Origin: Minisyncoccota bacterium
GTDB lineage: Bacteria > Patescibacteriota > Minisyncoccia > Phycocordibacterales > JBAZVT01
Assembly: GCA_041660745.1 (NCBI GenBank)
Contig: JBAZVT010000003.1
Location: 1,880 to 65,879, forward strand
Reading direction: 5' to 3'
Length of the DNA: 64,000 bases
Positions 37,496 through 40,400 of this stretch are shown here, piece after piece. The translations under genes were made by a program, and so were the position numbers. Numbering within the stretch: the first letter of the stretch is position 1; each line of letters begins with the position of its first letter. The notes below the pieces were generated by a model that saw only the letters and a program-made list of their open reading frames with translations, was not told where the DNA came from and did no database searches.

Positions 37496-40400
37496 GGATC
37501 TCAAATTTCCTAATAGAAATGGACTAATTAGTACACCTCGGCTCAACACATTACTGTGCGTACACCTAGTGCCTATCACCTGGTCATCTCCCAGGGGTCT
37601 CATAACGATTTCTAATCTTGGAGTTGGCTTCCCTCTTAGATGCTTTCAGAGGTTATCCATTCCCGACATAGCTACTCTGCGGTGCCCTTGGCAGGACAGC
37701 AGATACACCAGAGGTCAGTTCAACTCGGTCCTCTCGTACTAGAGTCAAATCTCCTCAAAAATCAACGCCTGCAGTAGATAGGAGACCAACCTGTCTCACG
37801 CTTGATATCACTTATTACTAAGTGCAATGGACTATAGCTTCATTCGCACAGTGCAAATGGTTGATGTTTAGTCTCTACGGGCTCCGTAAATTACGAATTC
37901 CCTCGATATTAGCCGTGCACGAAGTGCCTTTGGCTTCCACCGATATAAATCAACTTTGTTTCTATTTCTCCGAAGAAAAATAGAGACCGCCGTGATGTGA
38001 TTGGTTTCTTTTCTTTTATATTATTACAGTTAAGTAATAATTTTCTAAACGAAATGTTTTATAACAGTATTCCTTTGAGCGTCTATTCTCATAGACTAAC
38101 CCATAATATATTTCTTGAAATGTCCTCGCGGATTCAGAACGTCTTGCAGACAAAGCATGCGCTTAATCTTCAAAACGGTCTGAACCCAGCTCGCGTAACT
38201 TTTTAATTGGCGAACAGCCAAACCCTTGGGACCTTCTCCAGCCCCAGGATAAGTTGAGCCGACATCGAGGTGCCGAACTCCGCCGTCGATATGGACTCTT
38301 AGGCGGAACTAGCCTGTTATCCCTAGAGTAGCTTTTATCCGATAATCTCCCACCGCATCTAATGCGAATGGTCGGTTCACTTGGTTCTGCTTTCGCACCT
38401 GTTTGACATGTACGTCTCACAGTCAAGCTGGCTTATGCCCATACACTATCGGCACGGTTTCCATTCGCGCCTAGCCAACCTTAATAAACTCCTCCGTTAC
38501 TTTTTAGGAGGATAGCGCCCCACCAAAACTGCCCGCCAGGTACTGTCTCTATTCGTTTTTGCCGAATAGGTTAGAAAATATCTCTTCACAGAACGGTGTT
38601 TCATCGACGAGTCCATCTGAGCCGAAACCCAAACTTCAACCTCTACCGTCTACGCTACGCAGTAAAAAAATATTCTCAATACCAAGTTACAGTAAAGCTT
38701 CTAGGGTCTTTTCGTCTAACTGCAGGTAACCGGCATCTTCACCGGTATTGTATTTTCACCGAGCGGGTCCTCGAGACAGTTCTCCAATCATTACACTATT
38801 CAACGCGTCGGAACTTACCCGACAAGGAATTGCGCTACCTTAGGACCGTTATAGTTACGGCCGACATTCACCAGGGCTTACAACAGTCAGCTTGATATAA
38901 TCGCACCGCCGTTGTTTGACCTTCTGGCATTGGTCAAGTGTCACCCCCTATACATCCTCTTGCGAGTTCGCAGGGAGCTGTGTTTTTGTTAAACAGTTGT
39001 CAGAGATACTTTAGCTGCGGCCTGTATTGCTACAGGCAAGCCTTATTCCGAAGTTACGGCTGCTTTTTTGCAAAGTTCCTTGAGGACTTCTCACTCGTTC
39101 GTCTTGGTCTACTCGACCTGATCACCTGTGTCGGTTTGCGGTACGGATTCTATATAGTTATGCTTAGAAGTTTTTCTTGAAAGTTTGCTTTGCTGTATCT
39201 GTCTTGGCGAACCAAGACATTTCCACTCCACTTGAGGACGTAATTAAATACAGACTCCCGGATTTACCTGGGAATCACTCTTATGGCATGAACATAAATC
39301 CAATAATATGCACAGCATACTAAACTCTGTCACTCCATCGCACTATATAGAAGTCATGGAATATTAACCATGTGTCCATCGGCTGCGGCTCTCGCCATTG
39401 CCTTAGGCCCGACTAACCCTTGGCTGATTGACATCGCCAAGGAAACCTTGATCTTTCGACGTGCAGGACTCTCACCTGCATTGCGGTTACTTGTGCCAAC
39501 ATTCTTACTTCCACACGCTCCAGCATGGGTCACCCCTTTGCCTTCAACGCAGAGTGGAATACTCTCCTACCACTATATCCATCCGAAGATGGATCTAATC
39601 CTCAGTTTCGGTATTACGTTTAAACCCCGATTATCTGCGGCGCAAGATCTCTTACTGAGTGAGCTGTTACGCTTTCTTTAAATGATGGCTGCTTCTAAGC
39701 CAACATCCTCAGTGTCTGAGAAATCTTACCACCTTAAGCGTACTTAACGTAAATTTAGGGACCTTAAATAGAGATCCGGGCTGTTTCCCTTTTGACCAAT
39801 GGAGCTTAGCCCCCACAGTCTAACTGCTGAATAATTGACCTTTGGTATTCGGAGTTTGATAGGTCTTGCGATATTTCTACCTGTCAAGACCTTCCAGTGC
39901 TCTACCCCCAAAGGGTACATTCAACGCTAGCCCAAAAGCTATTTCGGAGAGAACCAGCTATTACCAGGCTCGATTAGCTTTTCACTTCTATCCACAAATC
40001 TTCCGAGAGTTTTGCACGGCTCACCGGTTCGGGCCTCCCTCTTGATTTCTCAAGAGTTCACCCTGTTCATAGATAGCTCGCTCTGGCTTCGGGTCTGATG
40101 TATACCACATACGCACTATTCATACTCGGTTTCCCTATGACTCCGTCCTCGCGGACTTAGCCGAGCGGTATGCATCAACTCGTTGGCTCATTCTTCAATA
40201 GGCACGCCATGACGGTCCGCACACTATGTACGATACTTGTGTTTAAAAACACAAAATCGCGCACACTGTGCGGACCGCGCTGACTCCTTGTAGGCATATG
40301 GTTTCAGGTCTATTTCACCGCCCTTAACGGGCTGCTTTTCACCTTTCCCTCACGGTACTAGTTCACTATCGGTATCTGAGAATATTTAGCCTTGCCGGTT

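Follow-up and report, generated by a model that had tools for sequence, protein, structure and literature searches.

A 64,000-nt stretch of the genome of a Minisyncoccota bacterium (contig JBAZVT010000003.1; hereafter the window) carries on its minus strand a 23S rRNA gene of 3,400 nt, against the 2,925 positions of the bacterial Rfam model, and raises the question of what kind of element has entered this gene and how it is organized. An initial annotation, made from the sequence alone, had proposed an intron of 374 nt lacking an open reading frame (ORF). The answer reached here is that the complement of 37801-38174 is very probably an ORF-less group I intron after U2593, belonging to a large clade in Patescibacteria, the candidate phyla radiation (CPR), with its guide sequence far from the 5' splice site behind a domain in L1, the loop closed by helix P1.

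An intron in the peptidyl-transferase centre

The host gene, the intron and the exon segments that bear on splicing are located as follows (window coordinates; intron nt n corresponds to window position 38175-n).

37507..40906, minus strand: 23S rRNA gene, host of the intron (Rfam RF02541 LSU_rRNA_bacteria, 2371 bits, model positions 1-2925)
37801..38174, minus strand: group I intron, 374 nt, after U2593 (sequence; RF00028; family covariance model)
38175..38187, minus strand: 5' exon positions -1 to -13 (GGGUUCAGACCGU), of which -7..-1 pair with the guide (P1) and -13..-1 alternatively with a segment of L1
37781..37800, minus strand: 3' exon positions +1 to +20, with CGUGA (+1..+5) pairing with UCACG as P10 and GGUUGGUCUC (+10..+19) opposite the P10 extension

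On the minus strand, GGGUUCAGACCGU (to 38175) is followed by the insert, UUUGAAG...AUAUCAAG (38174..37801), and then by CGUGAGACAGG (from 37800). Excising exactly 374 nt joins GACCGU to CGUGAGACAG, which is colinear with the Rfam consensus GAaCGUCGUGAGACAG. The rejoined exon matches the universally conserved GA(A/C)CGU joined to CGUGAGACAG and thus places the site between U2593 and C2594, in E. coli numbering anchored on U2580, U2584, U2585, A2602 and U2604-2605. Since any shift destroys conserved exon sequence, only a single boundary register exists, and the insert and boundaries given in the initial annotation hold to the base, as do its 5' exon ending in U and its insert ending in G. The insert lies inside helix 93, in the peptidyl-transferase centre; the host carries the exon variant C2590, which is compensated because its helix-93 partner is G2604 (GACAGGUUGG). 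The 23S gene is not broken, and the intron accounts for the length of about 3.4 kb that had been read from the minus strand at the outset. The 5' part of the gene contains three further small stretches that the Rfam model lacks, about 30, 24 and 51 nt long (window ~40599-40628, ~40544-40567 and ~40223-40273, minus strand; near model positions ~283, ~312 and ~584), which resemble extensions of helices rather than introns; they and the intron make up the 475 surplus nt.

The identity of the insert as a group I intron, likewise proposed initially, follows from several lines of evidence on its core. With an E-value threshold, the Rfam model Intron_gpI (RF00028), applied to 37700-38300, aligns over its full length (1-253) to 37808-38045 with 45.1 bits (E 2.9e-10), and the alignment displays P3, P4-P6, P7 (AGACUAAAC / UAUAGUC), P8 and P9. 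A family covariance model of 188 positions was built from 25 related introns, the window sequence being left out. Where the initial annotation had allowed for a covariance model failing to find the core, this one gives a single match in the window, 37801..37995, with 146.9 bits (E 2.3e-32, model positions 1-188 of 188), running exactly from the guide sequence to omega-G, the terminal G of the intron; the members on which the model was trained score 111-170 bits, a range that includes this value, and one match means one intron copy in the 64 kb. In an alignment of 37 compact cores, the window included, RNAalifold recovers P2, P3, P4, P5, P6/6a, P8 and P9 with compensatory changes in 31 of 41 pairs. 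When the named structure, P7 now included as a pseudoknot, is scored on the same 37 sequences, the share of paired cells is 93% (75% in shuffles) and compensatory changes occur in 32 of the 45 pairs. Covariation is 0.498 against 0.169; none of 500 shuffles reaches this value, and slid controls (at most 0.11) do not approach it. The P1 to P9 pairings expected at the outset are thus largely in place: P1, P2-P6, P8 and P9 are present, with covariation in P2-P6, P8 and P9, while P7 can form but is invariant. The elements of the core are the following.

37962..37983, minus strand: P2 hairpin, 9 bp, UUCG loop (alignment and fold; GNRA loop in most relatives)
37949..37954, minus strand: P3 5' strand GUUGAU (compensatory changes in 6 of 6 pairs)
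37879..37943, minus strand: P4-P5-P5a-P6-P6a domain (RNAalifold and covariation)
37869..37875, minus strand: P7 5' strand G-A(bulge)-GACUA, predicted guanosine-binding helix (invariant, 37 of 37)
37860..37865, minus strand: P3 3' strand AUCAAC (covariation)
37842..37858, minus strand: P8 hairpin (compensatory changes in 5 of 5 pairs)
37829..37834, minus strand: P7 3' strand UAGUCC, preceded by J8/7 GAAGCUA (Rfam alignment and family alignment)
37809..37824, minus strand: P9 hairpin with GUAA (GNRA) loop (compensatory changes in 5 of 6 pairs)
37801..37801, minus strand: terminal G, omega-G (sequence; the family model ends exactly there)

This core of 195 nt (P2-P9) has neither P5abc nor P7.1/7.2 and retains every position that is invariant in the family. 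The P7-like motif noted initially is GUAGAGACUAAAC at 37878-37866, and P7 and J8/7 match the Rfam consensus AGACUAAA ... AAGAUAUAGUC, a match of sequence only. RNAalifold also paired GGC of the guide with GUC of the P7 3' strand; this was rejected as an artefact of two invariant stretches in a tool that cannot draw pseudoknots. No homing endonuclease ORF (LAGLIDADG, GIY-YIG or HNH) was found in the insert, whose longest ORF on the intron strand has 45 aa and a TTG start. The initial annotation had already held the insert to be too short for a LAGLIDADG or GIY-YIG ORF, and an endonuclease remnant was dismissed for want of any ORF.

A distant guide and a long exon-intron helix

The 5' half of the intron departs from the conventional layout that the initial annotation had assumed: the guide is found 180 nt downstream of the 5' splice site, an atypical position for a group I intron, and the sequence before it is a conserved, structured L1 domain with the following parts.

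37996..38174, minus strand: L1 domain, intron nt 1-179, from the 5' splice site to the guide (fold and blocks common to relatives)
38167..38174, minus strand: intron nt 1-8, part of the 5' strand of the long helix (duplex and covariation)
38127..38151, minus strand: L1 segment nt 24-48 (GUCUGCAAGACGUUCUGAAUCCGCG), 3' strand of the long helix, with A facing U(-1) (RNAduplex, -27 kcal/mol)
38081..38096, minus strand: hairpin GUCUAU-GAGA-AUAGAC, nt 79-94, in the window-specific stretch of about 115 nt (fold)
38020..38041, minus strand: hairpin AUUAUUAC/GUAAUAAU, nt 134-155 (fold; taken by the Rfam model as its first stem)
37999..38008, minus strand: GAAACCAAUC, nt 167-176, candidate P10 extension that may pair with 3' exon +10..+19
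37984..37995, minus strand: internal guide, nt 180-191, UCACG (P10) followed by GCGGUCU (P1), complementary at all 12 positions to the ligated junction

The best complement of the ligated junction (AGACCGU joined to CGUGA) is UCACGGCGGUCU at nt 180-191, with all 12 positions paired. It provides a P1 of 7 bp (AGACCGU:GCGGUCU), with a U2593-G185 wobble at the cleavage site, and a P10 of 5 bp (CGUGA:UCACG) whose guide strand lies directly 5' of the P1 guide, so that P10 abuts P1 and P2 comes next. Because the guide is so far from the 5' splice site, P1 closes a loop, L1, of 179 nt in the window; L1 is only 4-7 nt long in the shortest members and reaches about 250 nt in the clade. The guide core CACGGCGG is conserved in CPR members at 5-250 nt from the 5' splice site. 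Of 63 family members, 62 form a P1 of 4-7 contiguous pairs and 60 a P10 of 4-5, and the wobble G with the CGG that follows it is retained in 62. Another subfamily has the exon AGAACGU and the guide GCGUUCU, at nt 6-17; as guide and exon differ together between the subfamilies (GCGG with ACCGU, GCGU with AACGU), the guide base tracks exon position 2590. The candidate P10 extension forms a duplex of -10.3 kcal/mol (z -2.5), and a similar arm with z below -2 occurs in 26 of 52 relatives with long L1; the 3' exon is invariant across all members, and the extension thus yields no covariation signal.

Together with 16 nt of exon, L1 folds with a minimum free energy of -53.1 kcal/mol (z -5.3). Its main element is a helix of about 22 bp in which 5' exon -13..-1 and intron +1..+8 pair with nt 24-48 (GUCUGCAAGACGUUCUGAAUCCGCG). 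A corresponding helix is found in about 50 relatives (median z -5 against shuffled L1), the consensus of the partner strand being N6-10-ACAGUCUGAAUCC in an L1 segment that ends in GAAUCC, and it is absent in the subfamily with the guide near the 5' splice site. In an ungapped alignment of 50 sequences, 91% of cells are paired, compensatory changes mark 12 of the 22 pairs, and the covariation of 0.41 (against 0.167) is equalled by none of 500 shuffles, slid controls giving at most 0.15. Loci L013 and L049 were left out of one of the family alignments, since the motif anchor had set them in the wrong register. Exon position G2588/A covaries with its partner C/U (35 GC, 14 AU). The splice-site U faces A in 42 of the 50 members, the window among them, and G in six, while C2591 faces A in 38. 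In the window, the base facing U2593 is A38, and C2590 is mismatched with U36. Judged from these alignments, the long helix exists and is under selection; it does not represent P1, because A rather than G faces the splice-site U. It overlaps P1 at exon -7..-1, where the two compete. Members with short L1 retain only GAACC(C), complementary to exon -13..-8, which suggests that the GGGUUC:GAAYCC pairing persists beside P1.

Further blocks of L1 are shared in the same order across relatives, namely CGAG(G), UUUCGUUUA / UUUUCGUYU, ACUGUUA and ACCAAUCA / AYCAAUCA, although only at the level of motifs: by blastn of the intron against relatives, nt ~150-374 match and nt 1-150 do not. MAFFT and RNAalifold gave no consensus structure for the distal L1 of 28 members, in an alignment that was too gapped. 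On inspection by eye, L1 contains two copies of ACAUUUC, each with an A/U-rich run after it, at 38117-38123 and 38051-38057 (nt 52-58 and 118-124; ACAUUUCAAGAAAUAUAUUA and ACAUUUCGUUUAGAAAAUUAUUA); they could reflect an internal duplication behind the window-specific part. A metagenome scan for the hairpin pattern of that part returned 11 loci, but neither blastn nor megablast linked any of them to the intron or to the window, and these were discarded as chance matches; a distant blastn search of the intron against plasmids gave no match.

Competing readings and a possible splicing pathway

Several observations weigh against an intron that is both intact and equipped with a functional L1 domain. 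Rfam at its gathering threshold reports no intron in the whole window: the check suggested initially, a search with Intron_gpI, succeeds by E-value, but 45.1 bits lie under the curated gathering score of 50 and the match spans 238 of the 374 nt. P7 is invariant in 37 of 37 sequences and the guide is invariant too, so that neither provides covariation evidence; this is partly explained by the search pattern, which demanded TATAGTC and the exon. The P2 loop is UUCG here and GNRA in about 27 of 37 relatives, and a tertiary contact through this loop may therefore be absent. About 115 nt of L1 (nt ~58-170) have no counterpart detectable by blastn in any relative and could be neutral filler. Shuffles of this sequence alone reach the simple pair counts of its two exon complements with a chance of about 2-3%, so that support for these complements comes from the family and not from the window alone. 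As to the Rfam score, 45.1 bits are normal for the clade, because relatives reach only 50.0-50.8 bits or go unreported. The generic model is marginal for these introns and puts its first stems in L1; at gathering, the L2593 intron was reported in two of seven related loci scanned (L070 and L117) and not in five (L023, L032, L001, L100 and L119), the last a Thermosynechococcus locus of the published type whose omission belongs with the points above. Annotation pipelines that rely on the curated Rfam cut-off will overlook most of the L2593 clade.

The long helix itself might be the true P1, with nt 24-48 defining the 5' splice site and CACGGCGG serving only P10 or flanking P2. It is far longer and more stable than the 7-bp P1 (-27 kcal/mol), it is strongly supported by covariation, and six of 50 relatives do place G opposite U(-1). 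We nevertheless hold this to be very improbable. The nearly universal U-G wobble is missing in 42 of 50 members, the window included, where pairing through the long helix would put the wobble one base inside the intron and leave an extra U in the rRNA. Five members (L039, L018, L064, L100 and L040) have an L1 of 4-30 nt, without room for such a helix, and carry only the CACGGCGG-type guide or a variant with one mismatch. The covariation of the guide base with exon position 2590 and the UCACG that adjoins the guide and matches the 3' exon are likewise what is expected of a P1/P10 guide. The proximal hairpin of exon and nt 1-47, tried as P1, was rejected for the A opposite U2593, the lack of an adjoining P10 guide and its impossibility in relatives with short L1. 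Less easily dismissed, although still unlikely, is that the 5' 179 nt stand outside ribozyme function, as leftover or foreign DNA (a decayed endonuclease gene or a small insertion) tolerated in the P1 loop. Peripheral loops of group I introns often hold insertions, including endonuclease ORFs (Haugen et al., 2007, PMC1995217, in the text available), L1 varies in length between 4 and about 250 nt among clade members, nt ~58-170 of the window intron have no detectable homologue, and the distal L1 has no consensus structure. Such tolerance sits poorly with an exon-pairing helix kept by compensatory change, exon base included, in about 50 species, with blocks that recur in the same order throughout the clade, with the absence of any ORF or protein-like remnant from L1, and with a fold of L1 and exon that is much more stable than those of shuffles (z -5.3). 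The reading may still hold true for the 115 nt specific to the window.

Intervening sequences of 23S rRNA that are processed by RNase III are short, consist of a single stem capping an rRNA helix in the regions of helix 25 and helix 45, and contain no ribozyme core. They are known from CPR and other bacteria, and the short ones described in the accessible part of the CPR survey lie at other sites (23IS2 and 23IS4) than 2593 (Tsurumaki et al., 2024, PMC11270868). If the insert were of this kind, or a degenerate remnant, it would be cut by host nucleases, RNase III acting on the long helix, and left unligated in a fragmented 23S rRNA. The size of the duplex, 22-24 bp, suits RNase III, the Rfam score is under the gathering threshold, and the P2 loop lacks a GNRA sequence. 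We give this reading almost no credence: every family-invariant core position is kept, with a leave-one-out score in the top tier; P1, P10, omega-G, the bulged-A P7 and J8/7 are all intact; and the long helix includes exon 2581-2593, so that cutting there would remove residues of the peptidyl-transferase centre. An RNase III-type intervening sequence was accordingly set aside for an insert in helix 93 that has a full group I core.

For the preferred reading, an ORF-less group I intron with a distant guide, removal of the intron would be required for the peptidyl-transferase region to form, and the most likely route, from established group I chemistry, is standard two-step splicing initiated by guanosine. 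In the first step an exogenous G, bound in a site supplied by P7 of the compact core, would attack after U2593 in P1 (guide GCGGUCU, nt 185-191, on AGACCGU); in the second, the 3'-OH of the exon would attack after G374 (omega-G), with the 3' exon aligned by P10. We suggest, with modest confidence, that the long helix is the first to form as the RNA is transcribed and keeps the splice site sequestered, and that the guide then displaces its central part and takes over exon -7..-1 while the GAAUCC:GGGUUC part remains paired. The outer long helix and the P10 extension might clamp both exons, which are the strands of helix 93, to the intron, and the L1 domain would then be an exon-holding and switching device.

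At the level of the clade, the design with the 5' splice site in a long helix and the guide far downstream is common to at least 50 species-level genomes. It is conceivable, if somewhat short of an even chance in our estimation, that the L2593 introns of the CPR represent a distinct group I architecture, in which the guide lies 60-250 nt downstream, past a structured P1-loop domain, and in which a second, non-catalytic complement of the 5' splice site covers 13 exon nt, the splice-site U facing an A and a C-A mismatch being usual at -3; about half of the introns also have the arm to +10..+19. This would amount to a built-in switch and exon clamp that holds the strands of helix 93 until ligation. 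If so, these introns would offer a natural system for how a ribozyme embedded in the peptidyl-transferase centre coordinates splicing with rRNA folding, and for how endonuclease-free introns persist and spread in reduced genomes; the long guides to both exons might let ORF-less copies spread by reverse splicing into 23S rRNA.

Hosts, genomic setting and known systems

Species genomes of GTDB were scanned for the P7 3' strand with omega-G and the 3' exon at a distance of 10-40 nt after it. At least 120 loci matched, and in at least 103 of these the 5' exon was located, with inserts of 213-840 nt. Among the matches listed, hosts are mostly Patescibacteria (lineages of Saccharibacteria and Parcubacteria/Paceibacterota), next to Acidimicrobiia, Omnitrophota, Armatimonadota, Chloroflexota, a Thermosynechococcus metagenome-assembled genome (MAG) and a Raphidiopsis genome, and the inserts fall into two size classes of ~210-580 and ~670-840 nt, the larger of which, going by size and the literature, would bear endonuclease genes. 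Among the fetched loci, the 23S genes nearest to that of the window are those of Patescibacteria, with 80-86% identity: a MAG (L032, 85.5%), a Paceibacterota genome (L023, 82%) and then MAGs of Yonathbacteria, Taylorbacteria and Minisyncoccia. This supports the placement of the host in the CPR/Patescibacteria, which the initial annotation had drawn from the presence of an rRNA intron.

The family model matches several separate places per related 23S gene, up to four or five per locus (L077, L050, L063, L018, L099, L044 and others), so that multiple group I introns per 23S gene appear to be common in related genomes, while the gene of the window has one. At one locus with short L1 (L100:81-338), an additional ~60 nt stand between the P7 5' strand and P3'; they resemble the cyanobacterial P7.1/P7.2, and the compact CPR cores may have arisen from that form by reduction. 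Two MAG contigs with archaeal labels ('uncultured archaeon' and Bathyarchaeia; L052, CAYXOT010000120.1, which scores 148.9 bits with the family model, and L077, DATEAU010000060.1) carry CPR-type L2593 introns in bacterial-type exons and may be mis-binned.

Around the 23S gene, the neighbouring genes are ordinary bacterial ones (FtsW, L10, L7/L12 and a glycosyltransferase). Further features are the following.

37251..37359: 5S rRNA gene (Rfam), adjacent to the 23S gene (together 37251-40906)
41568-42251: ORF upstream of the 23S gene, small mechanosensitive-channel-like protein
45784-49575, minus strand: ORF of 1,263 aa, probably for a large protein that is secreted or located at the surface (domains: right-handed beta-helix, lamin-tail, NosD-like)

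Across the 64 kb, no 16S gene was found by Rfam at gathering and no tRNA gene by Rfam at gathering or by ARAGORN; the absence of a 16S gene and the mechanosensitive-channel-like ORF upstream of the 23S gene indicate a split rRNA operon.

Position 2593 of the 23S gene, listed as 23IS12, is a frequent site of group I introns and LAGLIDADG genes in the CPR (Tsurumaki et al., 2024, PMC11270868, in the part accessible). The window intron resembles the introns at 23IS12 in host group, site and detectability as group I by Rfam (PMC11270868, same part), and it scores as a full member of the family model built from CPR-type L2593 introns. The accessible text of the survey catalogues sites and LAGLIDADG endonucleases, whereas the present copy has no ORF, and in that text we found no description of the secondary structure, the distant guide or the L1 helix (PMC11270868). 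Within the incompletely covered literature on the L2593 site, no description of a distant guide or a long L1 helix was found either, which is not proof of novelty.

The site is also known from cyanobacteria, which agrees with the initial statement that several bacterial large-subunit introns share it (PMC1995217 and PMC11270868, as far as available). According to the accessible part of Haugen et al. (2007, PMC1995217), the L2593 introns of Synechococcus sp. C9, S. lividus C1 and Thermosynechococcus elongatus are 744-748 nt long and contain a LAGLIDADG gene and a P7.1/P7.2 extension of ~65 nt; they share with the window intron the 23S site, the J8/7-P7 sequence TATAGTC and a short P5. That part further reports that bacterial introns and organellar introns of green algae occur side by side in every positional intron clade analysed (PMC1995217). 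In contrast to the cyanobacterial introns, the window intron has neither the LAGLIDADG gene nor P7.1/P7.2, GAGACUAAAC leading straight into P3', and in the Thermosynechococcus MAG retrieved by the same pattern search (L119) no long exon/L1 helix and no CACGGCGG-type guide motif were found. The L2593 site is therefore already published for cyanobacteria and the CPR, and the window intron is an ORF-less member without P7.1/7.2. The initial annotation had also equated the site with that of Cr.LSU, the I-CreI-encoding intron of the Chlamydomonas reinhardtii chloroplast, which is reported at the homologous 23S position; Cr.LSU is organellar and carries the I-CreI gene, whereas the window intron has no ORF.

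In size and layout the core resembles that of bacterial tRNA introns of the Azoarcus/Anabaena type (subgroup IC3), which measures ~195-205 nt, includes hairpins P2 and P9 and a short P5, and lacks both P5abc and P7.1/7.2; here P9 has a GNRA cap, as does P2 in most relatives. The IC3 introns differ in that their guide lies a few nt from the 5' splice site and their hosts are tRNA anticodon loops, against 180 nt and 23S rRNA in the present case. For the exon-binding domain of L1, a secondary lead at clade level, a parallel is the alternative P(-1)/P1 pairing of the Tetrahymena pre-rRNA, where, reportedly in work by Woodson and Cech, a helix sequesters the exon at the 5' splice site and competes with P1. 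The competitor in Tetrahymena is upstream exon, whereas in the L2593 introns it is an intron segment in the P1 loop, conserved with covariation across the clade.

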